Positions 4,808 through 20,103 of a stretch of DNA of 35,459 bases are shown here, one piece after another. Each line of letters opens with the position of its first letter. Within the stretch, counting starts at the first letter, position 1. The DNA comes from an uncultured archaeon. Lineage in GTDB: Archaea; Asgardarchaeota; Thorarchaeia; Thorarchaeales; Thorarchaeaceae. The position numbers and the translations under genes were made by a program. The notes below the pieces were generated by a model. That model had not been told where the DNA came from. It saw nothing but the letters and a program-made list of their open reading frames with translations, and made no database searches. The DNA lies in the NCBI GenBank assembly GCA_964590575.1, contig CAZPWM010000012.1, positions 17,993 to 53,451 on the forward strand, read 5' to 3'.

Positions 4808-7800
4808 TTATGCCACAATCCTGACAGGCTTCAGGTTCACAATCATGTGCTCACCCTCGACATTGTCGTACTCGACCATTCCCACAAGTTCTCCCTCTGC
4901 TCCAGGCTGCAGCTCAAACTCAATTTGCGCAATTGAAACCGTATCAGGCTCGACAGTTCCAAGACTCTGCGTCTTTATCGCATCAGTCAGGTCTGGTACG
5001 CCCAGTATCACTTGCACGTTCTGCATCGCGTTGTCAGCACCGTTCCGCACTACTACACCGAAGATAACGCGCCCATCACGAATCTTGTACTCAACAGCAA
5101 TGTCCATACCCGGCTCCAGCCCTAGGCTCGCAGGCTCCGCCCGAGTCACGAACTCCCTCGTCATTCGAGCATCACGGAACTTCCTCACGCCAACTGCAGC
5201 AATAAACGCCAGCACCAAGAGTCCCGCAACCTGGAATATCCAGTGCGATGTCGGGAAGAAGTCCTGTCCATCCATGATGCCATCTCCATCACTATCAGGG
5301 TTATTGGGGTCCGTGCCCAGCACCATAATCTCTGTGTAGTCATCAATACCATCTCCATCGCTGTCTGCCAGCAGAGGGTTTGTATGGTATTCATTGACCT
5401 CAGCACCATCAGATAGCATATCCGAGTCCGTGTCATTGTTCATTGGTTGGGTGAGGTACTCTGTAACTTCCAGAAAGTCGCCGAGACCATCTTGGTCACT
5501 GTCTGTTTTGGTTGGGTCAGAATATGGAGTGACGAAAAGCTCCTCATAGTCGCTCAGTCCATCGAAATCTCCGTCCTCTCTTAGCGGGTTTGTGGGGATG
5601 CCCAGCGGGTTCACACCGAAGACCTCATCGTAATCACTTATGTTATCCTCATCAGTGTCTTCGACATTCGGGTTTGTTTCGTATATGATAACTTCCTCGT
5701 AGTCGCTAAGTCCATCAAGGTCGCTATCTGGCAACAAGGGGTCGGTATTATAGAGAAGATACTCTTCTCCGTCCGTCAGCTGGTCAAAATCACTATCCGT
5801 ACCATTGATGTTCGTGCCCAGGAAAATTTCAAGTCCATCTTTGAGATCATCATTATCAAAGTCATCATCGTTGGGTAGTGTGTGGTAAATCCGTAACTCG
5901 TCCCAGTTTGAAAGACCGTCATTGTCACTATCATAGTCTCTATCCAAGGTTGTCCCATACGTCATGTTGGTTGTCGGGTCTGTTCCGGTCAGAATCACTT
6001 CCTCATAGTCACTCAGCCAATCGAGGTCTGTGTCATTCGAGTCCGGCATGGTGCCCCAGTCGTTGACCTCAGGACCATCTTCCAAACCATCAAAATCACT
6101 GTCCTTGTTGAGTGGGTCAGTTCCCCAGTCATCAATCTCTTCGTTGTCATAGAGACCATCATGGTCGCTATCTCTGTTTCTCGGGTCGGTATGGTAAATC
6201 TTGCATTCTTCTCCGTTAGTGATTGTGTCGCCATCCTCATCGTCGTTGTAATCTGATATTCCGTTGTCATTACTGTCAGGGTTTCGTGGGTCCGTCAGGG
6301 TTAGTACACACTCCCAGTAGTTGGTTAGGAGGTCTCTGTCCTCATCATCCGCACCATCGGACTTTCCATCAGAGTCACTATCGAATAGTCGAGGGTTAGT
6401 TTTTGTGAGACGAATCTCCTGCTGATTGGTCAACAGATCTCCATCAATGTCCCAATCCGCATCAGATATCAGATTCCCTTGAGTGCTGTAGAGGGTCGGG
6501 TCCGTGTGCGTCATGTTCACTTCTTCAAAATCTGTAAGGGAGTCTTTGTCTGTATCACTCACTCTAGGGTTAGTGTAGACCCATCTACTAGTAACAACAC
6601 CACTGATGTTGAAGGTCATGTAGAAACCATTGATTTCTTGTCCATCTAGAAGTTTGTCGGAGTCGGTGTCTTCTCGCAATGGCGATGTGTTGTAAATGTT
6701 CAGTTCATCACCATCTCCGATTGAGTCTCCATCTGTATCGTAAAGCAATGGATTAGTTTCGAACACCTTGATCTCATCATAGTCACTGAGATTGTCTGAG
6801 TCCGTGTCTGTGCTGTTCAAGAGCGTGTGCCATGTTAGTGCCTCCTCTGAGTCTTCGAGACCGTCATTATCGCTATCTCTATCGTTGGGGTTGCTTGACC
6901 AGTAGAAGAGTTCATCCCAGTCTCCGAGACCATCCTCATCACTATCGAACATGTTTGGTGAGGTGCCCCAGACAAATATCTCATCGAAATCACTCAGGAA
7001 ATCTGAGTCTGTGTCAATCAGTGTGCAGTTGGTCTCGTAGAGGTATATCTCGTCAGCGTTTGTAAGGCCGTCCGCATCTTGGTCATCTAGGTCGTCAGGG
7101 ATAGAATCTCCATCTGTGTCAACAAGAAGTGGGTTTGTCCCGCTATTGAATAACTCATCCGCATCTGCGAGATTATCTGAGTCTGTGTCATCGTTGATTG
7201 GTGAGGTTCCGTAGATGTTCACCTCGTCGCCATCACTTATTGTGTCAAAGTCAGTGTCCCAGTTCTGCCAGTCTGTGCCGTTCTCGAGTTCCTCTGCATC
7301 GTTAAGTCCATCCTGATCGACATCCGCCTCTGTTGGGTCAGTATTGTAAAGTACCCACTCTTCCCAGTCTGAAAGTGTATCGGAGTCTGTGTCATTTAGC
7401 AATGGGTCAGTACCAATGTCCAACTCAAGCTTGTCACTGAGAAGGTCATCATCTGTGTCGATAGAATTCGGGTTCGTCCCGTATGTGTTCCATTCATCTC
7501 CATCAGATAATGTGTCACCATCACTATCCCATGAGGTGGGTGAAGTGAGCGAGACATACACCTCGAAGTAATCATCGAGACCATCTGAATCACTATCACT
7601 CCCACTTGGGTCTGTGTGATATATCCAGTATTCGAGATAATCGCTGAGCTGATCATTATCACTGTCTTGGTCGGTCGGTGATGTGCCTGACACATATACC
7701 TCGAAACCATCATTTAGACCGTCTAAATCGGTATCCTTCGCAGTAGCGTTTGAGTGGTACCCATAAATCTCAACTGCATTGGTCAGACCATCCCCGTCAT

Positions 7801-10800
7801 TGTCAAGCTGCCCGTCAAGAGTACCATTCATGTTAGTGGATGGTAGCAGAGGGTTAGTGCCTAGGTATTCTATCTCAACAAAGTCATCCAGCTGGTCTCC
7901 ATCAGTGTCCTGAATGTTGATGTCGGTGCCATAGAATAACTCCTCGTTATCTAGGAGTCCATCACCATCACTGTCATTCGATAACGGGTCTGAAAGGTAG
8001 ACGAGTACCTCCATTCCATCTCCGATATTGTCGTTGTCGCTATCAAAATCCCCGGGGTTCGTTTCATAGATGTAAACCTCATCCCCATTTGTCAGCGAAT
8101 CACCATCACTGTCAATCATGTAATCCGTGTGGGTTCCATTATACCACATGTTGTTGGGGTCGGTGAGGGTCTGCTTGATCTCTACCCAGTCAGACAGCAA
8201 GTCTGAATCAGTGTCGTTGTTGAGAGGGTTAGTGAAGTAGTCGTTAATTTCCTCTCCATCCAATAGACCGTCCTCGTCGCAGTCATCATTTAACGGGGAT
8301 GTGCCGTAGACGTACTCCTCAGCATCGTCCAATCCATCGGAATCACTGTCGGCTTCAAATGGTGAGGTCTCGCCAACGTTCACAACACCGTTCGCATTGA
8401 CATCCTCTCCACGTTCTCCGAGAAGCGGTTCATAGATGCCATTGAGGTTTATGTCATTCCACCCATCGTACAATGTGTCTCCGTCGCTGTCCGGATTTGT
8501 AGCATTGAGACCAACATCAATCTCTAGTCCATCTCGGATGCGGTCTCCATCAGTGTCCCAGAGAGTGACATTAGTGTTGTAGGTCCGCAGTTCCTCTATG
8601 TTCGTGAGACCGTCATTGTCTTGGTCATCCTGTCCATCGAGAATGCCATCATCGTCATCATCGTTGTCAGTAGGGTCTGTGTGGGTGTAGTGTACTTCTT
8701 CACCGTCAGTTAATTGATCTAAGTCAGTGTCTGCAGCCAATGGGTCGCAGCCATTCTCCTGTTCCTCTACATTGGTCAGGTCATCGTTGTCCGGGTCCTC
8801 CTCCCCATCGAAGACGCCGTTATCGTTCGTGTCGTTGTAGAGTGGGTCGGTCCCGGTCATCTCGACCTCGAACCAGTTCTCGAGGGAGTCACCATCCTCA
8901 TCGTCATGATAGTCCGATATGAAGTCATTATCTGTGTCACTGTCATTGTGTAGCGTGTGCGTGATGTAGAGCTCGACTCCATTACTCAACCCATCACCGT
9001 CAAAGTCCTCATCATAGTCAGTGATACCATTATCGTTGCTATCCTCATCGTTGGGATCTGTGAGCAGGATTAATACCTCGTCTCCATCTTTTACTTTATC
9101 TCCATCAGTGTCCGGATTTCTAGGATGTGTGAATGTCACATACAACTCTTCATAATTAGTAAGTCTGTCGAGGTCGCTGTCTTCAAGATCATCTGTAAGG
9201 GGCAACCCACCAGAATCTTTCAAAGTAGGATTCGTGCGCGTTAAGTAAATCTCTTGATAGTTAGTGAGAGTATCATTATCATAGTCATAGTTTCCATCCA
9301 AGATCGTAGCATTGAAGGTATGGGGGTTTGTTGCATTCCAGAAGTGTGGAGCACCACGATACTTCACTTCATCTGGGTCGCGAATCAAATCAAAGTCAGA
9401 GTCAACTAGCGTAGCATTTGTTTTATACGTGAAGACCTCCAAGCCATCTCCCAACGTATCCCCGTCTGTGTCACTGTTGGTCACGTTTGTGAAATATACG
9501 TAACATTCTAGATAGTCATTGAGATTATCAAGGTCGGTGTCAGCAGAGTTGGGATCAGATTTCCAGACATTGACTTCCAGTCCATCTGAAATATTATCAG
9601 AATCAGTGTCGTTGTTTAACGGGTCCGTGAAGTAGGTATTGACCTCTGCCCCATCGCTTAACGTGTCATCGTCACTGTCACTATCTAACACACCTGTGCC
9701 ATAAATGACGTATTCGTCATAGTCTGAAAGCCCATCACCATCACCATCAGCCTTGAGTGGATCTGAGTGGACAATCATCACCTCTTCGTAATCCGTTAGT
9801 TTGTCATTATCTGTGTCTTCGTTGAGCGGCGATGTTTTGCTGATCTTCACTTCATACCCATCATTCAAAAGGTCATCATCACTGTCAGGGTCGTATAATC
9901 CAGTCCCGAGCTGAATCTCTTTCCAGTTTGCGAGGTTGTCACCATCTTGGTCATCATAATAGTCTGTTATGGAGTCTCCGTCAGTGTCCACATCATTGGG
10001 ATCTGTCTTGGACTGGCGGACCTCCTGGATGTTCGTGAGTCCATCCCCGTCGTTGTCATCTTGCGCATCATTGATATTATCTCCGTCGCTGTCAGGATCA
10101 GTGGGCAGGGTGAGAGTGACGTTGTTCTCCTCATAGTCAGTAAGCGAGTCTCCGTCAGTGTCTGCCTGATTTGGATTAGTACCGAGGTATATCTCTTGCC
10201 AATCTGTGAGTTTGTCTGAGTCAGTATCGGCTAAGTTGGGGTCAGTGCCATGAGTGATGACCTCTGCAAAGTCAGAGAGTTTGTCGCCATCTGAGTCCGC
10301 TTTGAGAGGGTTTGTTCCATAGGTGAGGACCTCTTGCCCATCACTCAAATTGTCATTGTCGGTGTCAGAGTCATTGTAGAGCGTACCCTCCATGATGATC
10401 TCGCGAGCATCTGCGAGTCCATCTTTGTCAAAGTCTCTACCATAGGTGGACACGGCACCGAAGTTCGTGCCGAAGGCGAACTCATCTCCTCCGAAGTTGT
10501 CGAGGTCGCCAAAAGCCAAAGCACCAGTGAACCCATTAGCAGTGAGCTGGTTGACCCTCCATCCTGTGGAGTTGTACGTCGTGAGAGTGTTGGGAGTTCC
10601 CACGAGCACCTGTGCATTGGTAGTGGCTCCGATATTGGGGAACCGTATATCGTTTGGTACGCCGCCCAACGTCTTGTTCCATGACAACACTCCTACTGAG
10701 GTGTAGACACGAAGTTGATTGGACGCTGTACCAAGCGCGAACTCATACCTCCCACCAGTGACAAGGTCTCCGACGCGAAGGGCAGAGATACTACTAGCGA

Positions 10801-11638
10801 GCTCGAGTTTGAATGCAAGCGTGCCTGTGTCGTACCAGACATTTAGTGTCCCGTTGCTGTTCCCATAGAGCACATCCCAGTTCCCAGCAGTGGTTAGGTC
10901 TCCCATGGCTACGACATTGATTGCAGTGGGACTTGTTTTCTCGAACACCATAGTACCAGTGTCCTGTAAGAGGGTGAACAGTCTTCCCTCAGAGGCCACT
11001 ACTACCTCAGTTCGAGCGTCAGCATCAATGTCTCCCACAGCCAGCAAGCGGACTCTTCCATTGCTCAAATAGCTCCAGAGTGGAGTTGTGTTAATCTCAA
11101 AAGCGTAGACGTAGAAGTCATCACAGCCCACAATGACCTCTTCGAACGCATCGCCATCGAGATTACCCCCAACAACAGCATAGACTGCCTCTGGGAGAGA
11201 CATGTTCATCTGAACCGTCTTATCAGCACCAACTACGAGAATGCCCCGGTCTGTCCCTATGAGCATCTCCTGACCAGTGGCTGCAGTGCCATCGAAGGAG
11301 GTCAGTGCATGTGGTGTCGAGCTAAGTTTCAGTTTCCACAACAATGTGCTATTGTCATCGAACAGGAATAAAGTACCATTGTTCGCAATGACAGCAACCT
11401 CATCTCGCGCATCTGCATCGAAATTATCGACAACAACATCCACAACCTGATTCCCGGTCGTGGTGGACCAAACAAGGGCAATGTCGAATGGTGCGATCTC
11501 AGCGAGAGCGTGTGGAACCTGTTGAACCTGTGGCTTCGTGATTGTCACGGGTTGTATTCCCGTATCTGTCATCTGGAGCTGCAATCCTGCAAGTGCGCAG
11601 ACGACTAGTAGGGCTATGATCACATGATAGGTCTTCAT
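4808..11638 (-). CDS. Giant single-pass cell-surface protein: signal peptide, FG-GAP-type beta-propeller, TSP3-like Ca-binding repeat stalk, TM helix, cytoplasmic beta-sandwich
   Basis: Signal MKTYHVIIALLVVCALAG; blades such as GNLDGDAFEEVIVG, GDIDADARTEVVV, GDLDNFGGDEFAFG; dozens of DxDxDGLxDxxE...TxP units; TM WIFQVAGLLVLAFIAAVGV followed by RKFR; many N-x-S/T sequons; GGAGGA RBS and ATGA overlap with the upstream gene. Confidence 0.9.
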   Translation of the reverse strand: MKTYHVIIALLVVCALAGLQLQMTDTGIQPVTITKPQVQQVPHALAEIAPFDIALVWSTTTGNQVVDVVVDNFDADARDEVAVIANNGTLFLFDDNSTLLWKLKLSSTPHALTSFDGTAATGQEMLIGTDRGILVVGADKTVQMNMSLPEAVYAVVGGNLDGDAFEEVIVGCDDFYVYAFEINTTPLWSYLSNGRVRLLAVGDIDADARTEVVVASEGRLFTLLQDTGTMVFEKTSPTAINVVAMGDLTTAGNWDVLYGNSNGTLNVWYDTGTLAFKLELASSISALRVGDLVTGGRYEFALGTASNQLRVYTSVGVLSWNKTLGGVPNDIRFPNIGATTNAQVLVGTPNTLTTYNSTGWRVNQLTANGFTGALAFGDLDNFGGDEFAFGTNFGAVSTYGRDFDKDGLADAREIIMEGTLYNDSDTDNDNLSDGQEVLTYGTNPLKADSDGDKLSDFAEVITHGTDPNLADTDSDKLTDWQEIYLGTNPNQADTDGDSLTDYEENNVTLTLPTDPDSDGDNINDAQDDNDGDGLTNIQEVRQSKTDPNDVDTDGDSITDYYDDQDGDNLANWKEIQLGTGLYDPDSDDDLLNDGYEVKISKTSPLNEDTDNDKLTDYEEVMIVHSDPLKADGDGDGLSDYDEYVIYGTGVLDSDSDDDTLSDGAEVNTYFTDPLNNDTDSDNISDGLEVNVWKSDPNSADTDLDNLNDYLECYVYFTNVTNSDTDGDTLGDGLEVFTYKTNATLVDSDFDLIRDPDEVKYRGAPHFWNATNPHTFNATILDGNYDYDNDTLTNYQEIYLTRTNPTLKDSGGLPLTDDLEDSDLDRLTNYEELYVTFTHPRNPDTDGDKVKDGDEVLILLTDPNDEDSNDNGITDYDEDFDGDGLSNGVELYITHTLHNDSDTDNDFISDYHDDEDGDSLENWFEVEMTGTDPLYNDTNDNGVFDGEEDPDNDDLTNVEEQENGCDPLAADTDLDQLTDGEEVHYTHTDPTDNDDDDDGILDGQDDQDNDGLTNIEELRTYNTNVTLWDTDGDRIRDGLEIDVGLNATNPDSDGDTLYDGWNDINLNGIYEPLLGERGEDVNANGVVNVGETSPFEADSDSDGLDDAEEYVYGTSPLNDDCDEDGLLDGEEINDYFTNPLNNDTDSDLLSDWVEIKQTLTDPNNMWYNGTHTDYMIDSDGDSLTNGDEVYIYETNPGDFDSDNDNIGDGMEVLVYLSDPLSNDSDGDGLLDNEELFYGTDINIQDTDGDQLDDFVEIEYLGTNPLLPSTNMNGTLDGQLDNDGDGLTNAVEIYGYHSNATAKDTDLDGLNDGFEVYVSGTSPTDQDSDNDQLSDYLEYWIYHTDPSGSDSDSDGLDDYFEVYVSLTSPTSWDSDGDTLSDGDEWNTYGTNPNSIDTDDDLLSDKLELDIGTDPLLNDTDSDTLSDWEEWVLYNTDPTEADVDQDGLNDAEELENGTDWQNWDTDFDTISDGDEVNIYGTSPINDDTDSDNLADADELFNSGTNPLLVDTDGDSIPDDLDDQDADGLTNADEIYLYETNCTLIDTDSDFLSDFDEIFVWGTSPNMFDSDEDGLGDWDELFYWSSNPNDRDSDNDGLEDSEEALTWHTLLNSTDTDSDNLSDYDEIKVFETNPLLYDTDGDSIGDGDELNIYNTSPLREDTDSDKLLDGQEINGFYMTFNISGVVTSRWVYTNPRVSDTDKDSLTDFEEVNMTHTDPTLYSTQGNLISDADWDIDGDLLTNQQEIRLTKTNPRLFDSDSDGKSDGADDEDRDLLTNYWECVLTLTDPRNPDSNDNGISDYNDDEDGDTITNGEECKIYHTDPRNRDSDHDGLYDNEEIDDWGTDPLNKDSDFDGLEDGPEVNDWGTMPDSNDTDLDWLSDYEEVILTGTDPTTNMTYGTTLDRDYDSDNDGLSNWDELRIYHTLPNDDDFDNDDLKDGLEIFLGTNINGTDSDFDQLTDGEEYLLYNTDPLLPDSDLDGLSDYEEVIIYETNPNVEDTDEDNISDYDEVFGVNPLGIPTNPLREDGDFDGLSDYEELFVTPYSDPTKTDSDQDGLGDFLEVTEYLTQPMNNDTDSDMLSDGAEVNEYHTNPLLADSDGDGIDDYTEIMVLGTDPNNPDSDGDGIMDGQDFFPTSHWIFQVAGLLVLAFIAAVGVRKFRDARMTREFVTRAEPASLGLEPGMDIAVEYKIRDGRVIFGVVVRNGADNAMQNVQVILGVPDLTDAIKTQSLGTVEPDTVSIAQIEFELQPGAEGELVGMVEYDNVEGEHMIVNLKPVRIVA
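5260..10435 (-). repeat. Coding degenerate tandem repeats, D(T/S)DxDGLxDxxE(x4-5)T(D/N)P (bacterial thrombospondin type 3-like)
   Basis: Visible in translation over ~1700 aa, as ~22-23 aa units interspersed with ~36 aa units; strongly diverged at DNA level. Confidence 0.9.
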
Positions 11639-12633
11639 GGTGCGGTTCCTCCTATCTCTCTAGGAATTTGCTTCCAAGGTTTCACTTGGAAATAATCAAA
11701 GAAGTCCGCCTCTACAAGACTGACTTCTTCAAATCGTAGTTTCATTTCATTGAATTTCTTAATGATTGGCAGGAGCTGTTCACTGGGATTATCTAAGAAC
11801 AACTTCATTGCATTCCTACCAGCTTGTGCAGTGTATTCGATTCCTGGGAGCGATTCCACCCGTTTGATTATCTCCGGTGTTAAAGCATGGAGAACAACAC
11901 GGATGCTCTCCCCTTTTCCAGGGAGTGTCGAGATCAGTTCCTCTGGAGTCCCGAACTGACTCACATTGCCATCCTCTAAAAGGCACACTCGTGTGCAGTA
12001 ATCTACAATCTCTAGGTCATGGCTGATGATTACCATAGTTGTGCCAAGCTCGTAGTTTAGCTCTTTCAGATAGTTTAGCGTTTCATGTCGAAGATGGGCA
12101 TCGAGCCCTGTGGTTGGCTCATCAAGCAAGAGCACTGGCGGGTCATGTATCATACCAAGGCAGATTGACACCCGCTTACGTTCTCCGCCAGATAGTCTAT
12201 CAACTCTCTTGGTTATTAGTTCTTCATCAAATCCTAGGATTGTGAGGACATTTCTAGCCCGTTCTTCAATCTCCTTGGGCCTGAGACCGAACATGCGTCC
12301 GAAGAACTGAGCGTTCTGAAGAGGGTTGAAATCGTAGTAAAGGCTTAGATGTTCCAGCTGAGGGACATAACCTACGAGAAGACTGATCAGCTTAGCTTTC
12401 TTAGTGACATCATACCCACCAACAAAGGCTTGTCCATCAGTAGGACTAATCTGTCCTGTGAGAACTCGGAGTACAGTCGTCTTTCCAGCTCCTGAGGCTC
12501 CGATGATACCAAGGAACTCTTTCTTATTAGCGAAGAATGATGCTCCTTTCAAGGCGAAGAAATCTCCGAAAGCTACCTTGAGATCTATGATGTCAATCTC
12601 TCGATGGGTTTCCTTGACATCAGATTTTCCCAT
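11635..12633 (-). CDS. ABC transporter ATP-binding protein (DrrA/GldA-like ABC-2 exporter type)
   Basis: Walker A GASGAGKT, Q-loop YVPQ, signature LSGGE, Walker B LLLDEPT, H-loop ISHD, small C-terminal domain. ATG 12633 follows GGAGGTG RBS (track start 12642). Confidence 0.92.
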   Translation of the reverse strand: MGKSDVKETHREIDIIDLKVAFGDFFALKGASFFANKKEFLGIIGASGAGKTTVLRVLTGQISPTDGQAFVGGYDVTKKAKLISLLVGYVPQLEHLSLYYDFNPLQNAQFFGRMFGLRPKEIEERARNVLTILGFDEELITKRVDRLSGGERKRVSICLGMIHDPPVLLLDEPTTGLDAHLRHETLNYLKELNYELGTTMVIISHDLEIVDYCTRVCLLEDGNVSQFGTPEELISTLPGKGESIRVVLHALTPEIIKRVESLPGIEYTAQAGRNAMKLFLDNPSEQLLPIIKKFNEMKLRFEEVSLVEADFFDYFQVKPWKQIPREIGGTAP

Positions 12634-12634
12634 T

Positions 12635-15600
12635 TCACACACCTCCTACCTTGTCGCTTACTCGGTCGAACATCTTACGTCCTTCCTCAATGTCTTGCAT
12701 GAGTACGCGTAGTGCTTCTATCTTCTGTATTCGATCAAGATCTTCTCTTTGTATCAGGTCCTCGAGTTGTGTGAAGGCTGCAAGGAGCGCGCTGAGGGTA
12801 TTGTCTATCTCTCGTACTAACCCAGTATCAATCTCTGGGATTCTGAGACGTTTCCTCATTCTTCTACGATTCCAAACCAGAACCCCAATCAATCCGCCGA
12901 AAATCCCAAAAGATGTGAGAAGTGCTAGTTCTGCCATGGTCAGGAATACAAAGGGTGGGGGCGGAGATATTGTGGGTTCAAGCTCAAACAGGTAGAAAGT
13001 AACACTCGCGTAAGTCATGGCGTATTCCTCATCGCCCAAGACTAGGAAAATACCATTGATTCTACCTTCTTTACTCCAAGCACTGGATGTGAACTGTGAT
13101 GAATAGAGTCCATCTTCTACGAACCCTGCAATGAAAAAGGAAAGACTTCCGTTGGGTAGCTCATATGCAATAGCAACACGCAGGTCGTTGACAGGATTTC
13201 CGTCAATATCTGTTAGCTCTAGATTGACATAGACACTCCGACCTGCCTGATAGTACGAAGTGTTTTCCGAGAGGCTTGTTGCGGTGGTCAGAGTGTTTCG
13301 TAATAGGTACTGGTTCAGATTATCGAGCAACATGCTGTTATTGCATTTTACAAGGTTCTTGTTCATAAAGATCTTAGACGAGCCAAATACTGCTAGCTCA
13401 GGGTCTGTATAGTCCAGTAATATAACACTATTACCATCGAGTCTGGCATTTGCTTTAGACTGGTTGTTCATGACGTAGGTTCCGCCACCAAGCCAGATAC
13501 TCTCCAGTCCGAATCCTAAGCGAGAGGTTGTAACAATTTCTGTAGTATTCTCTTTGCTATGACTCCCATGTAAATAATAACCATACTCCATCAAGAGTGG
13601 ATTGAGTGCTGTGATGTTTGCATTATCATCATTGTCACCTAAAATAACGAGCGTGCCTCCGCCCTCGGAGAATTCCCTGAGAATCTCGATTTCTGTTGAG
13701 TTGTACTCCTTAGTTGGAGCTATGATAAAGACTGTTGAGAATGTTGCAAGTAGGTCTGCATCGAGCTCCATTCCTGGTGTTTCTATGAGGTCGAGTCCCA
13801 CATCTGCCATCCTTTTCTTCATGTTCGAGAGACCTGAGAACGTAGTCATTCTGAATGAGTCAAAGAGGCTTGTAAGTGAGCCAAGACTACCAAGGTCATT
13901 GAGACTAAAGCCAGTCAACATAGCTTCTCCACCGCTAGAACTGTCTTCTTGAGCGAGTGGGAATCCTAAACCTCCAGTATCTCCGCCAGTCAAGGAGCCA
14001 GTATCACCGAAACCTCCAGCACCTCCGAGTAGAGATCCAAACCCACCTCCGTGCGAAGTTTCAAGGAGCATCATTGCGCGTGGATATTCCAGAGTCCTTT
14101 CAAGAGTGATATTGGTTGTCCATCCTACCTCGGTTTCAAGCACATAGTCGCATCTATGATACCCATCCATACCAATTGGGGGTGTCAGTAAAAAGAGTGA
14201 GAAGTCATAGAATCCTTCTATTGTTTTAGCACTAGTAAGAGACATATTGCCCCAATCTGAAGCATTTCCACGATTTGAGATTGTGAGATTACCAAGGGAT
14301 TCGGTGGTTGAAAGAACAAAGCTGTAAATTCCAAAGTCTGCTGGAAATCGGATATCAAATGGTGCGAATGGTAGCTGCTTGGGGAATACCGATGTTGATG
14401 ATATTGGGGTGATAATGAAGACATCTCGTAGCAGAAAATCATCTAAAATCCCTACTCCCGATGTAAGAAGTGATGCCACCGGGTTAGATACAAGATTGAC
14501 GATTTGGTCTAGTCCTGTTGAAACCGCCCATGCTGCAGTTCTTACTCCCTCAGTTTCAGGTCGCCAGTCTGTGATTAGCACTTTAGCTTTGAATGGTTCT
14601 AGCACATCATAAGAGAAATACCTCGCGAACAGGGTACCATCATCAGCAGTACCTTCGACTACTAGCATGGCTCCGATAGCTGTTGTGTTCGCTTCTCCAA
14701 TATTCATGATTACTGCTTTCGATTGATACGTCTGACCAACCTGCGCTATCCTTGGAACATCGGCTTCCACGACTATGAGGTCTCCCTGGTCTAAGGCGCC
14801 GGATGGGACATCATATTTCCACATTGCATCTATTGATGCATCAAGAACCGTGCGGTTCTCACCAAAACCCATGGCTATTGTAACATTAGTAAGTTCATCG
14901 ACATCGAGAGTTCCGAAGTCCCATTGCATTGCTAACCCAACATCGCCATCAAAGACGGTGGACCCTGTTAGGTTATTGTCTGAAACATGACTGCCAATAT
15001 TTGACGAGTTTCCTACTTCAAATGAAGAGAGGGGGATGCTTGAGTTCATACCTACATAGAAGTTGCCATAATTCTCTGAGAGCCCATACGCAAACAGCTG
15101 CTGGTTATCAAGAGCGTACTTTCCGTGATCATTCTCACCATCTAGGTAGAGGTCAAGAGAATATGAAACATACAAGCTCACATTCTCTACAGGCTCGCTA
15201 CCAAGGTTGAGGATGAATGGTGTAATTCTAAATGCAGTCAAAGGAAGTGAATCATACGTAGTGAGATTATAGGCTTCGACCAAGAACGTGACATAGACCG
15301 AGTCATTGTTGGACAGCACGCCAATGTAACGATTGTAAGGTACATTATTTGACGACGATACAACCTGATGAAACTCGCTTTTCACATTAAACATCATCAA
15401 ATTTGTTGGGTCCTCATTATTCCACTTGAGAGAGAACATACCCATCATCAAGTGAATCCCCGAGTCCTGTGGATTACGTGTGTCTATTGCAACAAGTGTT
15501 GTTCCGAAACTACTCATCAACATGGTAGTTGATGCATCTGTGCCGCTAGCAGTGATCAAACCGAGTGCTAGGAGCGGCAAACTTGTTGTTCGCGAGTGTG

Positions 15601-17011
15601 GGTCTGCAGGGGTCTGTTGTGTGCTAAAGTAATCAAATGCTGCTTGCAGATTGAGAAGACCTGCGCCTCCATCATTTGCCCCATACCCAATCGGTGTGGC
15701 TGTGTCACGAAGGACATTGGCTAGAGCGATTGGACTTATTCTATCGAATGCTTGCAGTAAAATTGCTGCGGCACCTGCCGTGATGGCTGCAGAAGCTGCT
15801 GTTGTGTCTGCAATGGTATAATTCTCATCGAATGTTTCACCAATAGAACCCCCAAGAAGACCTCCTAGACCACCAAGGCCACCAAGATCACCTAGTCCGA
15901 TATCACCGAAACCAAGACCTCCAAGACCTGCAAATGGTTTGGCTCCCACAACACCAACACCTGGTGCCACTAGGTCTGGTTTGGTCAATAATGAGAGTGA
16001 TGGTCCTCTTCCTGAGAAATCAGGAATCTCCAGCTGTTCAGTGTCATACGCTCCAACACAAAACGCAGCTGCATTTCCACCGGGAGACATGACAGTCAAA
16101 TAGTCTGGGCCGTCATCTCCTGATGCTGCCACAACAAAAATTCCCTTTTTAGCTGCGATTTCAACTGCCTCTGAGACTGCGTCATCTGGTGCACCAAGAG
16201 TGTTGAAAGGCAATAGAATGATATCTGCACCCCTACTGCTTGCCCACTCTATACCTGAGACAATCCAACTTGGAGATGCAAAGAGCCCTCCAAGGGTCAC
16301 TTTCGCAGAGAGTAGTGTTGCACCAGGAGCAATACCAGCATAGACGCCATCAGATGTATTTCCAGAACTGACTGCAATTGATGCTGCATAGGTTCCATGC
16401 CCAATGAGGTCAAGAGGCAATGTGTCAGCTTCCACAAAGGATGCAAAAGCAGCCACGCTGAAATCTGTTTGAAGTGGGTCCACTCCTGTATCAAGGACTG
16501 CAATAACAGTACCAGTGCCATTGTAACCTGCATCCCAGAGGTCCCTTGCACCAATCCTGTCGATAAGCGGGACATAGTCCTCTGATGACGATGCAGCAGT
16601 GGTAGTGGTCTGTACATGTTCTATTGGTGTTATTTCGTTTGACCATATCTTGGTGATAAACTCCTCTTTGGCAAGGTCTACAATGGCTGAGCTCAGCATC
16701 TTTACATGGAGCATGCCTATCGTTTTGAAAGTTTCAATCATCTTGGCAGTCTGGTCTGCAAAAAGAACAGCATTCTTCGCTTTGAACTCGCCTACCTCAT
16801 CGTCATAACCGATTAGTACGTCACGATACTGATCCAAGTAAGTCTGATTGAGTAGTGAATCATCAATCTTGTCCATGGGGTCAGTTACATGGGGGCTGAT
16901 TCCGATAACAGGTTGAACAACAGAAAGTCCACTAACCATGATGATACATACAAGTATGTATGCTACCACCTTCTGGGTCAGATGCATCATTGTTTGTTTC
17001 AGACCTGCCAT
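12635..17011 (-). CDS. Membrane-anchored S8 subtilase homolog, probably catalytically inactive, with GIFT-like domain and C-terminal TM plus helical tail
   Basis: IAVLDTG (Asp), GHGT (His), FSGRGP, KPDLVAPG present; SGTSMA replaced by DTTAAS; GIFT-like segment FSTVFIIAPTKEYNSTEIEILREFSEGGGTLVILGD; TM LALLTSFGIFGGLIGVLVW then NRRRMRKR. Start 17011 preferred (4 nt after the upstream stop) over track start 17062. Confidence 0.85.
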   Translation of the reverse strand: MAGLKQTMMHLTQKVVAYILVCIIMVSGLSVVQPVIGISPHVTDPMDKIDDSLLNQTYLDQYRDVLIGYDDEVGEFKAKNAVLFADQTAKMIETFKTIGMLHVKMLSSAIVDLAKEEFITKIWSNEITPIEHVQTTTTAASSSEDYVPLIDRIGARDLWDAGYNGTGTVIAVLDTGVDPLQTDFSVAAFASFVEADTLPLDLIGHGTYAASIAVSSGNTSDGVYAGIAPGATLLSAKVTLGGLFASPSWIVSGIEWASSRGADIILLPFNTLGAPDDAVSEAVEIAAKKGIFVVAASGDDGPDYLTVMSPGGNAAAFCVGAYDTEQLEIPDFSGRGPSLSLLTKPDLVAPGVGVVGAKPFAGLGGLGFGDIGLGDLGGLGGLGGLLGGSIGETFDENYTIADTTAASAAITAGAAAILLQAFDRISPIALANVLRDTATPIGYGANDGGAGLLNLQAAFDYFSTQQTPADPHSRTTSLPLLALGLITASGTDASTTMLMSSFGTTLVAIDTRNPQDSGIHLMMGMFSLKWNNEDPTNLMMFNVKSEFHQVVSSSNNVPYNRYIGVLSNNDSVYVTFLVEAYNLTTYDSLPLTAFRITPFILNLGSEPVENVSLYVSYSLDLYLDGENDHGKYALDNQQLFAYGLSENYGNFYVGMNSSIPLSSFEVGNSSNIGSHVSDNNLTGSTVFDGDVGLAMQWDFGTLDVDELTNVTIAMGFGENRTVLDASIDAMWKYDVPSGALDQGDLIVVEADVPRIAQVGQTYQSKAVIMNIGEANTTAIGAMLVVEGTADDGTLFARYFSYDVLEPFKAKVLITDWRPETEGVRTAAWAVSTGLDQIVNLVSNPVASLLTSGVGILDDFLLRDVFIITPISSTSVFPKQLPFAPFDIRFPADFGIYSFVLSTTESLGNLTISNRGNASDWGNMSLTSAKTIEGFYDFSLFLLTPPIGMDGYHRCDYVLETEVGWTTNITLERTLEYPRAMMLLETSHGGGFGSLLGGAGGFGDTGSLTGGDTGGLGFPLAQEDSSSGGEAMLTGFSLNDLGSLGSLTSLFDSFRMTTFSGLSNMKKRMADVGLDLIETPGMELDADLLATFSTVFIIAPTKEYNSTEIEILREFSEGGGTLVILGDNDDNANITALNPLLMEYGYYLHGSHSKENTTEIVTTSRLGFGLESIWLGGGTYVMNNQSKANARLDGNSVILLDYTDPELAVFGSSKIFMNKNLVKCNNSMLLDNLNQYLLRNTLTTATSLSENTSYYQAGRSVYVNLELTDIDGNPVNDLRVAIAYELPNGSLSFFIAGFVEDGLYSSQFTSSAWSKEGRINGIFLVLGDEEYAMTYASVTFYLFELEPTISPPPPFVFLTMAELALLTSFGIFGGLIGVLVWNRRRMRKRLRIPEIDTGLVREIDNTLSALLAAFTQLEDLIQREDLDRIQKIEALRVLMQDIEEGRKMFDRVSDKVGGV

Positions 17012-17015
17012 CGTA

Positions 17016-18695
17016 TCACTTCTCAATTGTACCTTGAATAAGACCTCGAGTAATGGCAACATAGTAGTCTACCATGTCCGCAACCGACTTAGTCTTCACA
17101 ATCTTTACTTTGATGTTTTGCTCCTTCAGAGCAGTGACGCATCTCTCAGCAATCACTTCTAATGGCTCATCTGTGAACATCTTCAGGAGTTCTCCTCTCT
17201 GTAGCACAAAACGAACTCCTTTGACCTGCTCTAGTGTCTTGCGGGCTCTTGGGTCCACCTCTTCAAGCACGACCCCCACAGCAAATCCTCTTGAGGGCAT
17301 CGATTCTTTCAATGTGGCTGGACTTCCAAACGCTACAAGACTCTTACCCCGCATGAACACTGCTACCTTATCACAAAACTCAGCCTCTACGGGATAGTGC
17401 GTAATGACAATTATCGATGTACCATATTCCTGGTTGATATATGAAAGATAACTCCAGAGCTCATACCTGTTGTCAGGGTCAAGCCCTGAAGTTGGCTCAT
17501 CCATGAGGAGAACCTTGGGCTTGTGTGCCAAAGCTATGGCAATAGAAACTCTTCTCTGTTGCCCACCGCTTAGCTCCTTTGTGGGGCTGTTTCCTTTCTC
17601 GAGGACTCCAAAGTCTCTGAGGAGGGTCTTTCCTCTCTGAATCAATTGCCACTCAGGAATGTCATACTGCTTTCCAAATGCGATTATGTTCTCGAGAGGT
17701 GTAAAGGTCTCATACATATATGACAAGTCTTGAGGACAGTATCCAAAGAAGTGACGAACTTTCTGGGTCTGTTTCGAGTCAATTCCGGCAATTCTTGCTA
17801 CGCCAGTACTTGGAATATCGCCAATCAATGCTTTCACGGTCGTTGATTTACCTGCTCCAGACTCGCCGATGATGGCTAGCATCTCACCCTCGCGAATGGA
17901 GAACGAAACATTCTCGATGAGCTTCTGACCGCTTTTGACCGTCACTGTCAGATTTCTGGCTGCGAGCACATCTCTGTATTCAGGAGCTTGTTTCCAGGCA
18001 TAAGGCATTATGTAGACCTTGGTAGCTAAAACAGTGAGGTTTGGATTGTAGCTTGGACCAATTAGAAGCTGCGGCTGTGCAACCATGTAGATTTTGGGAT
18101 CTCCGACCTCTTCCTCTGGAGCAACTCGGACGTCAAGAGTCCCCTCAGGAAGTATGGGAGCTGGTCTTGTAGAAGCACCCACAATCGTACCTTTGATCAT
18201 AATCATAGTCTTGTCAGAGCCTCTGCGGCCCCAAACCGTGCAGGCCACTTCTTGACTCTTCATCTTCTCCAGATCTTTCACTGCTTGTTGGAGGTCACGG
18301 CCATCATAGTATAGGTCGTCTGCCATGTTTCGCTTCAGGTAGTTCTGAACCGTGATTTGTGTGGCTGCTACGTCATCCTGACCTGATCCCTCACCACCTA
18401 TTGTTAGTACCTTATCTAGTTCTCCTGCTCGTTGTCTGCGAAGATCCTCCTCTACATATACTGCGATCCTTCGTGTTAGGACTCCTTTCTTGACCTTCAA
18501 GACTCGACCTTTGAACTTCACTTCCTTACCAGATGAAGTCAACTTACCTTCAACTTCACAGTGTAGCTCACGGGTTTGTCGTGTGATGCACCAATCAATG
18601 GCATCACCTATTCGTGCTCCAGAAAAGTAAGCTTCTTCAACAAAGACTGGTTTCTCCTTTTCAGATGCACCCATTTGGTCTGTTTTTTGAATCAT
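17016..18695 (-). CDS. ABC transporter ATP-binding protein with ~240-aa duplicated N-terminal extension
   Basis: GESGAGKS, YCPQ, LSGGQ, LLMDEPT, ITHY all intact; GGTGA RBS upstream. Confidence 0.92.
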   Translation of the reverse strand: MIQKTDQMGASEKEKPVFVEEAYFSGARIGDAIDWCITRQTRELHCEVEGKLTSSGKEVKFKGRVLKVKKGVLTRRIAVYVEEDLRRQRAGELDKVLTIGGEGSGQDDVAATQITVQNYLKRNMADDLYYDGRDLQQAVKDLEKMKSQEVACTVWGRRGSDKTMIMIKGTIVGASTRPAPILPEGTLDVRVAPEEEVGDPKIYMVAQPQLLIGPSYNPNLTVLATKVYIMPYAWKQAPEYRDVLAARNLTVTVKSGQKLIENVSFSIREGEMLAIIGESGAGKSTTVKALIGDIPSTGVARIAGIDSKQTQKVRHFFGYCPQDLSYMYETFTPLENIIAFGKQYDIPEWQLIQRGKTLLRDFGVLEKGNSPTKELSGGQQRRVSIAIALAHKPKVLLMDEPTSGLDPDNRYELWSYLSYINQEYGTSIIVITHYPVEAEFCDKVAVFMRGKSLVAFGSPATLKESMPSRGFAVGVVLEEVDPRARKTLEQVKGVRFVLQRGELLKMFTDEPLEVIAERCVTALKEQNIKVKIVKTKSVADMVDYYVAITRGLIQGTIEK

Positions 18696-18706
18696 CGTGA
18701 TATCAC

Positions 18707-19885
18707 CTAACCCAGTGTTGGTTTTCTGGAGAATATGAAAGTGGCAGCTAGGATTGCTACAGCTGAGAATCCAAATAATATGAGAACCCTATCTATTACC
18801 TCTAGAATTGAAAGCCCTTTGAATGCTGTGTCTATGAGAAGGTTAAGTCCCTGGTTCATTGGGAGTATTCTATCCAAAACTCCGACATTGAGAAAGAATC
18901 CTGACAGAATTAAGGTTCCAAATAGAACAAAGAGGAACATCTGATTTGCTTGTAATCTCGTGTTTGCAACAGACGAGATCAAAATTCCTGTAGCTGATCC
19001 AGTTAGTGAGCTTAAGCTCATAATTATCACAAGGGATATGAAACTTGTATTGAGTGTGAGATTAAACGCTAGGACCCATAATGTGACCAACAACAACGAC
19101 TGGAAGAACCCAATAATCACATATCCAATTACTTTAGCAACAACGACCTCCAGTCTACTGGTTGGTGTGAGCAGCATTCGACGGAGAGGCGTATCGCCTA
19201 CTATTGATTGAGCTGAAGTCATGGCAATTCCAAGATAGCTTGAGAAAATCACAATGAAACCACCAAACACAGTTACCAAATATCCTCCTTCCGGAGTGAA
19301 CTCAATAACCATACTCGGAAAAATCTCAGAACGAATCCAGAGCTTTGATACTCTAAAAAAGATTGTTCCTGCTTGAATAATTCCCTGAATAGACGCAGAT
19401 CCTAACAGGTTGTTTCCATCATAGTGAACTTCGAGATATGTTGGGAAGTTATCTGTGAGGTTCGCCTCAAAGCCATCAGGAATAACGATGTATGCATCTA
19501 TCAGTTGTTCATACAATGCTCGATATGCATCAGCCGTACTATTGTATATGGTGACATTTGCCATTTCTTCATAAAACGCAGTTAGATTCTCAGAGAGGTC
19601 TTCTGCCCCGTAATATCCACTCGTAGAGTCTAAATCTACAATACCAAGTTTGACACTGCTCTCAGTGGTTGTTACATTATCACCACCACCACCCATGCCT
19701 GTGGATCCGCCAAGAGACATTCCTCCCAAACTACTTGATTCTGTAACATACCAGAGCATACCAATGAGTGCTGCAGGCAACATAAAAATCAGGAGGAGGG
19801 CGACCTTGTCTTTGACTATCAGTCGAAGTTCTTTCATCACCATGTTTCTAATGCGTCTGGATGGTTTTGTCAGAACTTCTGCCAT
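18707..19885 (-). CDS. ABC-2 type transporter permease
   Basis: MVMKELRLIVKD, TM1, extracytoplasmic domain (LGIVDLD, YIVIPDGF), RRMLLTPTSRLEVVVAK, LSGFF, five further TMs. Confidence 0.9.
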   Translation of the reverse strand: MAEVLTKPSRRIRNMVMKELRLIVKDKVALLLIFMLPAALIGMLWYVTESSSLGGMSLGGSTGMGGGGDNVTTTESSVKLGIVDLDSTSGYYGAEDLSENLTAFYEEMANVTIYNSTADAYRALYEQLIDAYIVIPDGFEANLTDNFPTYLEVHYDGNNLLGSASIQGIIQAGTIFFRVSKLWIRSEIFPSMVIEFTPEGGYLVTVFGGFIVIFSSYLGIAMTSAQSIVGDTPLRRMLLTPTSRLEVVVAKVIGYVIIGFFQSLLLVTLWVLAFNLTLNTSFISLVIIMSLSSLTGSATGILISSVANTRLQANQMFLFVLFGTLILSGFFLNVGVLDRILPMNQGLNLLIDTAFKGLSILEVIDRVLILFGFSAVAILAATFIFSRKPTLG

Positions 19886-19931
19886 TTTGTTTTCCCTCTT
19901 TTCAGTGAGTACTCAGAATTCATCTAAAGAC

Positions 19932-19939
19932 ACTATAAA
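19932..19939 (-). promoter_or_regulatory. Putative TATA box for the ABC/surface-protein operon
   Basis: TTTATAGT on the minus strand, about 50 nt upstream of ATG 19885, in an AT-rich divergent intergenic region. Confidence 0.3.
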
Positions 19940-20103
19940 CTATACTTGACGAAGGCAAGCTCAAATTGAACTCTATTAAGGGTTTACCACATCTCATAAA
20001 AATCGAGGATTGGAACTCTTGTCGTTTTTTCGAATACTTAAATAAACACACCAACATGACAAATAAAGGACTAGGACCTTCATGAACTATCTTACCACGC
20101 GGA

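Follow-up and report, generated by a model that had tools for sequence, protein, structure and literature searches.

What might a Thorarchaeon do with an ATP-binding cassette (ABC) transporter whose genes are interleaved with those of two very large surface proteins? The question is raised by a stretch of 35,459 nt, here called the window, from an uncultured Thorarchaeaceae archaeon (Asgardarchaeota; GCA_964590575.1, contig CAZPWM010000012.1, positions 17,993 to 53,451 of the forward strand), in which five consecutive open reading frames (ORFs) on the minus strand, 19885..4808, encode in order an ABC-2 permease, a first ATPase (ATPase-1), a subtilase-like protein with a GIFT domain (S8-GIFT), a second ATPase (ATPase-2) and a giant surface protein. 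Our preferred answer, to which we would give a probability of roughly 0.55, is that they specify one membrane machine characteristic of Thorarchaeota, in which an ABC-2 core carries two attached surface proteins and ATP turnover is coupled to them. No account of such a system was found in the full-text literature searched for Asgard GIFT domains, thrombospondin, Thorarchaeota subtilisin or ABC surface proteins, and intraflagellar transport or the BBSome. The five genes are as follows.

18707..19885, minus strand: ABC-2 permease, 392 aa
17016..18695, minus strand: ATPase-1, 559 aa
12635..17011, minus strand: S8-GIFT pseudoprotease, 1458 aa
11635..12633, minus strand: ATPase-2, 332 aa
4808..11638, minus strand: giant type I surface protein, 2276 aa

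The genes are tightly packed: the gaps that follow those for the permease, ATPase-1 and S8-GIFT measure 11, 4 and 1 nt, respectively, and the ATPase-2 gene ends in an ATGA stop/start overlap with the gene for the giant protein. Purine-rich ribosome-binding motifs (GGAGG-, GGTGA- or GAGGG-like) stand 6–9 nt before four of the five starts, while that of S8-GIFT is weak. An earlier note, made from the sequence alone, had read the co-orientation, the spacing and the mostly clear ribosome-binding sites in this way and had proposed the five genes as a single system, and comparison across Asgard genomes bears out both the layout and the grouping. A locus scan using one genome per species gave 78 loci, in all of which ORFs were called and compared with the window proteins; 75 are Thorarchaeota-type and the other three lie in Jordarchaeia-type genomes (one of them labelled Thermoproteota), with presence counts taken only from loci that have enough flanking sequence. 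On this basis all five genes occur in the same order in 39/40 loci, with ATPase-1 upstream of S8-GIFT in 74/74, the permease upstream in all 65 loci with room for it, ATPase-2 found in 52/53 and the giant protein in 50/51. The sole break in order, in locus L069, falls where a 100-N run at L069:10897-10996, a scaffold join, cuts the S8-GIFT gene in a record that is labelled 'chromosome' and holds several such runs; what looks there like a loss of the genes further downstream results from scaffolding and is uninformative, and we rejected this locus as a counter-example.

Junctions are conserved along with order. The ATGA overlap between ATPase-2 and the giant protein is kept in 42/48 loci and the 4-nt gap between ATPase-1 and S8-GIFT in 40/59, the 1-nt gap between S8-GIFT and ATPase-2 is found in 26/51 (the rest being mostly short overlaps), and the spacing before ATPase-1 is 3–23 nt in 55/55 cases. 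These loci come from species-level genomes in which S8-GIFT is 49–88% identical to that of the window, and among 7999 candidates scored there were 170 S8-GIFT relatives at E ≤ 0.001, the 120 listed being 53–88% identical and, where named, nearly all from Thorarchaeota with a few Promethearchaeota and one Lokiarchaeota label, which places the window in the Thorarchaeota lineage of Asgard archaea. Two of the loci, L032 and L033, are separate contigs of one metagenome-assembled genome with equal identity values, which looks like assembly redundancy or a recent duplication, and possibly represent one locus counted twice. The co-conservation is far more than chance would give, the five genes are conserved together as a translationally coupled unit, and very probably they also function as one.

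Three explanations that dispense with such a unit, namely that independent genes stand together by chance, that they belong to an anti-virus defence island, or that they encode a type I secretion (Lap-like) adhesin system, are in our judgement extremely improbable even when taken together. Chance is opposed by an order kept in 39 of 40 loci where the exception is a scaffold gap. A defence role might be suggested by PADLOC, which returned ABC-ATPase (mad3, mad8) and subtilase matches; these are to generic domains only, none was obtained for the permease, the giant protein or the gene that neighbours the operon, and a defence system was rejected. The Lap-like possibility is taken up with the giant protein below.

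The membrane core encoded by the unit has the features of an ABC-2/type V exporter, which are a permease of the ABC-2 family and a canonical nucleotide-binding domain (NBD). The permease matches PF12698 (ABC2_membrane_3) with 100.6 bits (cut-off 31.6) and PF01061 with 49.1 bits; it has no sequence relative in the PDB, and its hydrophobic segments give a first transmembrane segment, an extracellular domain at approximately residues 46–198 (~150 residues, with a Gly-rich loop) and five or six further transmembrane segments. ATPase-1 and ATPase-2 match PF00005 with 100.1 and 91.3 bits, respectively. Both have the full set of catalytic motifs (Walker A, Q-loop, LSGG, Walker B-Glu and H-loop) and neither ATPase site is degenerate; these motifs are kept, either invariant or with conservative changes, in 69/69 ATPase-1 and 52/52 ATPase-2 sequences, so that one permease with two different intact ATPases, as first proposed, is what the family encodes. 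The two ATPases are ~33% identical (L069 ATPase-1 orthologue against window ATPase-2), and no part of the operon evolves more slowly than their NBDs (mean pairwise distance 0.14).

The two ATPases differ in architecture. ATPase-2 consists of an NBD and a C-terminal domain with no extension, and its nearest solved sequences are the NBDs of ABCA3, ABCA4, ABCA1 and ABCA7 (E 1e-51 to 1e-43). ATPase-1 has a DrrA/ABCA-like NBD and a C-terminal domain preceded by an N-terminal extension (residues 1–245, DNA 17961..18695) formed of two related β-rich repeats, whose internal score of 49 compares with 25.5 +/- 4.3 (maximum 44) in 200 shuffles. When isolated, this extension matches the C-terminal β-barrel part of the Regulator_TrmB model in two stretches (30.8 bits, cut-off 22.2), while a language-model look-alike search of it gave no usable match and a PDB sequence search gave one insignificant match (E 0.14). 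It was found only in Thorarchaeota-like ATPases, 142 proteins in number, and those among the 120 listed are at least 62% identical.

Like ABCA exporters and DrrA/NodI-type systems, the module thus combines similar NBDs, a C-terminal domain of the kind in the drrA model after the NBD, and a large extracellular domain after the first transmembrane segment. Unlike ABCA, its subunits are unfused, there is one permease gene for two NBD genes, and the drrA subfamily model scores the ATPases at 178.9 and 179.1 bits, under its cut-off of 312.45. These likenesses raise the first serious alternative, that the operon encodes an ABCA/DrrA-like lipid or glycolipid exporter with the GIFT scaffold as acceptor or chaperone, the giant protein being only co-regulated (for example, by needing lipid or glycan for its anchoring or modification) and making no contact. 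We consider this somewhat unlikely. That the nearest relatives of ATPase-2 are the NBDs of ABCA lipid exporters speaks for it, as does a permease laid out as a first transmembrane segment, a large extracellular domain and transmembrane segments 2–6 of PF12698; the evidence on the other side lies in the two large proteins.

The first of these, S8-GIFT, has an N-terminal signal or anchor segment and one C-terminal hydrophobic segment, a type I layout, with the following parts.

~16562..16879, minus strand: propeptide-like region
~15602..16519, minus strand: dead subtilase domain (residues 165–445, Peptidase_S8)
~14057..15562, minus strand: three β-sandwich domains
~13292..13879, minus strand: GIFT domain
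~12977..13291, minus strand: Ig-like domain
12638..12952, minus strand: transmembrane segment and helical cytoplasmic tail

Membership of the subtilase family is given by PF00082 (116 bits), and the closest solved relative of the domain is the archaeal subtilase Tk-SP (3afg, E 5e-55). When aligned to 3afg, the window protein keeps Asp174 and His205, the catalytic Ser is replaced by Ala405 and the oxyanion Asn by Asp299, so the active triad with its oxyanion Asn is absent. Across 71 sequences (the window and 70 loci) the Ser position is occupied by Ala in 39, Thr in 25, Ser in six and Val in one, Asp takes the place of the oxyanion Asn in every one, His205 is replaced by Pro or Ser in eight and Asp174 by Gly in two. 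As judged from these residues the subtilase is catalytically dead across the family, in line with the earlier prediction of a dead protease, with Ser kept in 6/71 sequences and Asn in 0/71. The domain is nonetheless the best-conserved extracellular part of the protein (distance 0.25, compared with 0.35 for the GIFT domain and 0.58 for the propeptide-like region), and it is kept for something other than catalysis.

The GIFT assignment holds by both sequence and fold. In the window protein IFT52_GIFT scores 33.8 bits (cut-off 27.2) and DUF4350 falls under its cut-off, and when the profile of the post-subtilase region was compared with the PDB only IFT52 was matched (E 1.6e-10, two stretches). 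A structure model of residues 460–1458, built with 27 sequences, reached a predicted local distance difference test score (pLDDT) of 72.6 and displays three β sandwiches, an alpha/beta GIFT domain, an Ig-like domain, a transmembrane helix and a two-helix cytoplasmic tail, the last having many invariant positions; two Gly-rich stretches of the model are of low confidence. Its top Foldseek matches in the PDB are OST48/Wbp1 (E ~1e-9) and eukaryotic site-1 protease (S1P; 8uw8_A, 454 columns of the post-subtilase region, E 3.1e-9), the IFT52 N-terminal domain is matched well (TM-score 0.60–0.65, root-mean-square deviation 3.2–3.6), and the sandwiches resemble domains of glucodextranase, cellobiose-phosphorylase and transglutaminase. 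We also observed Gly/Leu-rich low-complexity loops at 15830..15920 (an S8 loop, residues ~363–392), at ~13950..14050 (before the GIFT domain, residues ~987–1020) and in the permease (residues ~50–70, ~19675..19735); their character is conserved across the family, a third insert occurs in some relatives, and such loops are modelled with very low confidence.

In its architecture S8-GIFT matches S1P (MBTPS1), in which a membrane anchor follows the GIFT part. S1P is divided into pro-domains and three subdomains, Peptidase S8, P-like and GIFT (617–998), the last of which is unique to S1P among proprotein convertases (PMC11231238). S8-GIFT has the same order of propeptide, subtilase, β-sandwich (P-like) region, GIFT domain, single transmembrane segment and short tail. 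Unlike S1P, which is an active protease, the Thorarchaeota family lacks the Ser and the oxyanion Asn and has a larger middle region, and its subtilase is nearest to Tk-SP, with S1P not among the best 60 of 138 PDB matches. Models of the third and fourth MBTPS1 domains gave no match in the window protein, and in the Jordarchaeia-type locus L077 MBTPS1_4th reached 25.6 bits against a cut-off of 27. Shared domain order thus makes common descent with S1P a candidate only. The best fold matches, OST48/Wbp1, and the only PDB family found by profile, IFT52, are all non-enzymatic scaffolds, as S8-GIFT would be, although OST48/Wbp1 works in oligosaccharyltransferase and IFT52 in intraflagellar-transport trains, and both are devoid of a subtilase domain and of an ABC partner. 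Subtilase pseudoproteases that serve as binding proteins do exist, in CspC (Clostridioides) and PCSK9, and S8-GIFT resembles them in keeping a subtilase fold under selection with no working triad and in weak matches to the CspC and CspBA models; unlike S8-GIFT they are soluble, with no GIFT domain or membrane anchor, and no specific sequence relationship links them to it.

The second large protein is likewise single-pass with a cytoplasmic tail, as had been foreseen for both; it has one N-terminal and one C-terminal hydrophobic segment, its tail is conserved, and it is arranged as follows.

~10379..11521, minus strand: β-propeller (FG-GAP/BBS-type), after the signal peptide
~5264..10435, minus strand: TSP3-type calcium-binding repeats, ~75
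5186..5242, minus strand: transmembrane segment
4811..5185, minus strand: linker and seven-strand β-sandwich cytoplasmic tail

Its stalk matches TSP3_bac with 86.2 bits and contains 75 Asp-rich motifs, Asp making up 21% of the repeat region. In 33 complete orthologues, down to 50% identity, the protein is 2222–2276 aa long with 69–78 motifs, and since the length is fixed a structural part fits better than a variable adhesin. The propeller, taken as isolated residues 1–423, scores above cut-off with PHTB1_N (42.9, cut-off 28.6), BBS2_Mid (41.3, cut-off 27) and Beta-prop_BBS7 (39, cut-off 27), as well as with the carrageenase model Beta-prop_CGLA (33.8, cut-off 26.8), while FG-GAP models fall under their cut-offs; it is the second most divergent part (distance 0.52). 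In BBS subunits there are also coiled-coil, GAE and platform domains; the giant protein matches further Pfam families, but no BBSome domain is among them. Because the propeller lies between a signal peptide and the TSP3 repeats it is extracellular, and with no other BBSome domain present the likeness is one of propeller class; a suggested BBS2-like propeller therefore stands as far as the BBS2, BBS7 and BBS9 propeller models score above cut-off, and goes no further given the CGLA- and FG-GAP-type matches.

When 26 sequences of the tail are aligned, mean column identity is 72% and a motif in the linker is invariant, and because the tail is far more conserved than the ectodomain a cytoplasmic partner is indicated. 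The modelled tail is a seven-strand β sandwich (pLDDT 81.6) for which Foldseek places ApaG (1tza, 1xvs) first and a COPI leaf chain, 9qpq_H, fourth (E 5.6e-5, TM-score 0.53), followed by PolDIP2, transglutaminase and TRAP domains; against Pfam up to E 10 only DUF1344 was matched, insignificantly (E 0.1, 12.8 bits, cut-off 23.1). The COPI-appendage likeness listed in the earlier note is not a specific one, as the fold matches are those of a generic β sandwich and transglutaminase and TRAP domains score equally well. A search for the 125-aa tail on other proteins (220–2000 aa) gave 11 matches that we read as fragments of the same protein, nine of them carrying TSP3 and the four with a source name all being from Thorarchaeota.

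From their hydrophobic segments both large proteins look like Sec-targeted type I membrane proteins, with a signal peptide and an anchor at the C terminus, and are for this reason unlikely to be cargo of the ABC module, which agrees with the view first taken of them. This also bears on the Lap-like alternative introduced above. A giant calcium-binding protein together with an ABC transporter and a protease is superficially like LapA/LapB/LapG; the permease has the ABC-2 fold rather than that of type I secretion, the giant protein begins with a signal peptide and is anchored by a C-terminal transmembrane segment, and the protease is dead, and export of the Lap type was rejected on these grounds. 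The stalk invites another comparison, since the CglD equivalog model scores the giant protein at 371.8 bits over 14 repeat stretches, under its cut-off of 400, a score that is due to TSP3 repeats. Like Myxococcus CglD, MtsC and MtsD it has long runs of bacterial TSP3 calcium-binding repeats; unlike them it has no VWA-domain Pfam match, no lipoprotein or MYXO-CTERM anchor, and instead an N-terminal propeller and a C-terminal transmembrane segment with a tail.

Contact between the parts was modelled for one pair, full-length ATPase-1 and the giant cytoplasmic tail, which scored 0.44 compared with 0.00 for the best of three controls, with the runs sharing at least 73% of contacts and a partner pLDDT of at least 79. 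The mark passed by this pair is reached by 116/157 solved complexes and 2/215 mismatched pairs, scores of 0.60 or below at the mark being those of 18/157 solved complexes and of both mismatched pairs that pass. The prediction weakly suggests that the tail docks on ATPase-1, and whether the tail contacts the ATPase module in some way is to our minds evenly balanced, while the ABC module and S8-GIFT probably form a physical complex.

With both surface proteins described, the lipid-exporter alternative can be weighed. GIFT domains in OST48/Wbp1, a subunit of the glycosylation machinery, would suit it, as would the glycosidase-like lead given by the divergently transcribed neighbour (see below) and the N-glycosylation sequons, of which the two large proteins have 24 and 39. 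Against it stand a tail of the giant protein far better conserved than the ectodomain, the ATGA coupling of its gene to that of ATPase-2 in 42/48 loci, and a cluster in which no gene for lipid or glycan biosynthesis is kept; the predicted contact between tail and ATPase-1 (0.44 against 0.00 for the best of three controls) weakly points the same way.

Among described systems the nearest in kind is an ABC-2 transporter with a GIFT auxiliary (GldAFG/ABC_transp_aux), a relationship that is partly supported and holds in a general manner only. In Flavobacterium, GldA depends on both GldF and the GIFT protein GldG for its location at the membrane (PMC9127263). Like GldAFG (Flavobacterium johnsoniae), the Thorarchaeota operon brings together genes for an ABC-2 permease, for a DrrA-like ATPase and for an anchored membrane protein whose GIFT domain is large and extracytoplasmic. 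Unlike GldAFG, the Thorarchaeota operon has two different ATPases, one with a 245-aa extension, a permease with a large extracellular domain, a GIFT protein fused to a dead subtilase with one C-terminal transmembrane segment and a conserved tail, and a 2276-aa stalk protein. The proposal of a GldAFG-like machine in the earlier note is thus upheld at the level of an ABC-2 transporter plus GIFT auxiliary, and fails as a statement of orthology: the GldA equivalog TIGR03522 scores ATPase-1 at 104.3 and ATPase-2 at 130.2 bits, well under its cut-off of 402.6, and no GldF or GldG model, both of which NCBIfam includes, was among the NCBIfam matches at E ≤ 0.01 for the permease or S8-GIFT. What is new is an auxiliary fused to an S1P-like dead subtilase, two ATPases per permease with a lineage-specific extension on one, and an operonic TSP3 stalk of fixed length with a conserved cytoplasmic tail.

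The machine that we favour would have as its core an unfused ABC-2 (type V, DrrA/ABCA-like) transporter with one type of permease and two competent ATP-binding subunits, which we infer to be a permease homodimer with a heterodimeric ATPase pair, and ATPase-1 would bring its lineage-specific double β-barrel extension to this core. S8-GIFT would be an extracytoplasmic auxiliary of the GldG type, acting as a non-cleaving binding scaffold, and we read it as a transporter auxiliary because in GldAFG, the one system of this logic that has been studied, the GIFT protein is an integral partner of the transporter. The giant stalk, with ~75 TSP3 repeats and the propeller at its tip, may be a second client held by its tail on the ATPase side, for which two different active NBDs would offer asymmetric docking sites. 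Binding and hydrolysis of ATP would then be linked to the state of both surface proteins by way of the membrane and the tails, either by conformational transmission of force or by extrusion of lipid or glycolipid to the GIFT scaffold, two modes that the data do not separate; NosDFY and FtsEX are precedents for conformational transmission in other ABC systems. As an outcome, the cell could build, hold or regulate a long calcium-stiffened structure that contacts surfaces or partner cells. For a role in building or controlling a cell-surface contact structure we would put the chances at about even, and the 'assembly/sensing' role first proposed for the operon is a candidate only.

Several observations weigh against such a machine. 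ABC_transp_aux reaches 19 bits in the window S8-GIFT against a cut-off of 34.7, which the Jordarchaeia-type relative from L078 exceeds (36.8 bits). Heterodimeric NBDs on a homodimeric permease would be unusual. By the caveat of the prediction tool, weak passes such as 0.44 are wrong in most cases unless there was prior reason to expect the pairing, and the prediction returned no interface. Residual co-variation of domain distances, which could be taken over 14 complete taxa only, was uninformative, its best tail-related value being 0.43, between the ATPase-1 extension and the tail of S8-GIFT. Finally, in the two Jordarchaeia-type loci scanned with Pfam (L077 and L078) the S8-GIFT homologue adjoins a PP-loop enzyme and a tetratricopeptide repeat (TPR) protein and no ABC genes, with Mrp/Nuo-type genes further upstream in L078; S8-GIFT may therefore work in the absence of a neighbouring transporter, and its tail may have another partner. 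As far as seen, coupling to an ABC module is a feature of the Thorarchaeota lineage.

The GldA result counts in the case of a surface-motility or traction device, analogous to GldAFG with an adhesin or to the focal adhesion of Myxococcus CglD, which we hold to be highly unlikely. A GIFT auxiliary beside ABC-2 genes is indeed found as in GldAFG, the giant protein does reach 371.8 bits on the CglD model through its 14 TSP3 stretches, and a stalk of fixed length would be in keeping. Against this, the GldA scores (104 and 130 against 402.6 bits) come with no GldF or GldG model match, the CglD score is driven by repeats and under the cut-off of 400, no other gliding components lie in the cluster, and the role of GldAFG itself is unknown.

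The family to which S8-GIFT belongs extends well beyond the operon. An exhaustive profile search returned 1496 representatives at E ≤ 0.001, 164 at ≤ 1e-10 and 53 at ≤ 1e-30. Of 20 distant family proteins scanned, 12 with lengths of 1400–1800 aa match most of the profile and all carry Peptidase_S8, the other eight being diverse GIFT-bearing surface proteins. Among 33 wider-family representatives Ser is kept in five and His in 12, and P0319, a shorter protein with the different architecture S8-GIFT-CARDB, is the only one to combine all four canonical residues. The Jordarchaeia-type homologues (three loci) have the same length as the window protein, are 23–28% identical to it after the S8 domain and have neither Ser nor Asn, and a short and similar Gly-Glu motif ends the tails of many family members. 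Three of the distant proteins (P0304, P0308 and P0310) are 2000–4000 aa long with several GIFT/DUF4350 domains and HYDIN/CFAP65-like Ig domains or FG-GAP propellers, P0304 also ending in a Por secretion (type IX secretion system, T9SS) sorting domain; from such matches GIFT domains appear to be widespread in giant surface proteins. Near the homologue in L078 we also noted a weak longin-like gene and a weak MIT match (28.4 bits, cut-off 30), at L078:15130-15525 and 15529-18666.

Retention of the S8-GIFT tail in Jordarchaeia-type and more distant relatives that have no adjacent ABC genes is one of the points in favour of an outside-in sensor, in which the stalk and the dead subtilase would bind a ligand or surface, the tails would switch the ATPases or another partner, and the ABC transporter would be a regulated output. 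Dead subtilases are known as receptors, and the weak matches to the CspC and CspBA pseudoprotease models, the conservation of both cytoplasmic tails and the TrmB-type, ligand-binding-like extension on ATPase-1 would all be at home in it. We regard it as unlikely all the same, with no kinase, transcription factor or second-messenger enzyme conserved in the cluster, both ATPase sites canonical as in working transporters, and the direction of signalling not something that can be read from sequence. A bolder proposal, that the operon encodes an ATP-powered surface organelle undescribed in any domain of life, its heterodimeric ABC motor clamped by cytoplasmic tails to the stalk and to the dead subtilase-GIFT scaffold, and that Asgard pseudoproteases with a subtilase, GIFT domain and transmembrane segment are the stock of the eukaryotic S1P architecture, and more broadly of the OST48/IFT52 GIFT scaffolds, is in our view quite unlikely.

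Returning to the window, two features upstream of the operon adjoin the favoured machine.

19886..20103, no strand assigned: divergent intergenic region, 218 nt, likely promoter region, read from sequence
20104..22461, plus strand: conserved divergent neighbour, 785 aa, possible sixth member

The intergenic region is taken as a likely promoter region because it contains a TTTATA motif (a motif match only) ~50 nt upstream of the permease start. The divergent neighbour holds the same position and orientation in 51/52 loci, has no Pfam match up to E 10 and no signal peptide, and in a language-model look-alike search it fell in a Thorarchaeota cluster of its own, with a lead to six-hairpin glycosidase-like clusters (Bac_rhamnosid6H/MGH1-like, 0.96–0.97). 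Possibly it is a sixth component of the system, located in the cytoplasm. Beyond it, genes at 22550..23443 and 23504..24205, both on the minus strand, recur with 25 and 19 matches across loci, one having a weak longin-like N-terminus (Fuz_longin_1, 18.4 bits, under cut-off) and the other being Cys-rich.

On the downstream side a YhhN-family membrane protein is encoded at 4057..4743, 64 nt away on the same (minus) strand, and is kept in 9/37 loci, and a TPR gene follows at 2723..3985 (minus strand), a TPR gene being found downstream in 23/37 Thorarchaeota loci. In 2/2 scanned Jordarchaeia-type loci a TPR protein is likewise encoded beside the S8-GIFT homologue, in convergent orientation (L077:13868-14827 and L078:14063-14890); between the two groups the TPR proteins share generic repeat similarity only, at 22% identity. 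TPR clamps bind C-terminal peptides of the kind in which many members of the S8-GIFT family end, and a TPR protein as a conserved partner is a lead. PEMT-like and GDPD lipid-related genes are present elsewhere in the window, outside the conserved block. Rfam and tRNA scans of the window gave nothing, and a sigma-70 promoter and terminator scan did not rise above shuffles (35 promoters against 25.3 +/- 6.3, and eight terminators against 9.9) and is not meaningful for an archaeon.

How Asgard archaea display proteins on their surface and hold partner cells is hardly known, though cell-cell contact is central to models of eukaryogenesis. The operon is a lineage-wide candidate in this respect, found in ~74 species-level genomes, translationally coupled, and combining an energy source with two very large surface proteins. 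With it comes a sizeable family of membrane-anchored pseudoenzymes of the subtilase type that share the domain order of S1P, and because of this order the origin of the unusual GIFT domain of S1P could be tested by phylogeny. It further offers a tractable way to learn how GIFT auxiliaries serve ABC-2 transporters, which has been an open question ever since the description of GldAFG, and soluble, expressible pieces are available in ATPase-1, the two tails and the GIFT ectodomain. With its function as yet an inferred one, the system is of clear interest for the cell-surface biology of Asgard archaea and for the origin of GIFT-domain proteins.

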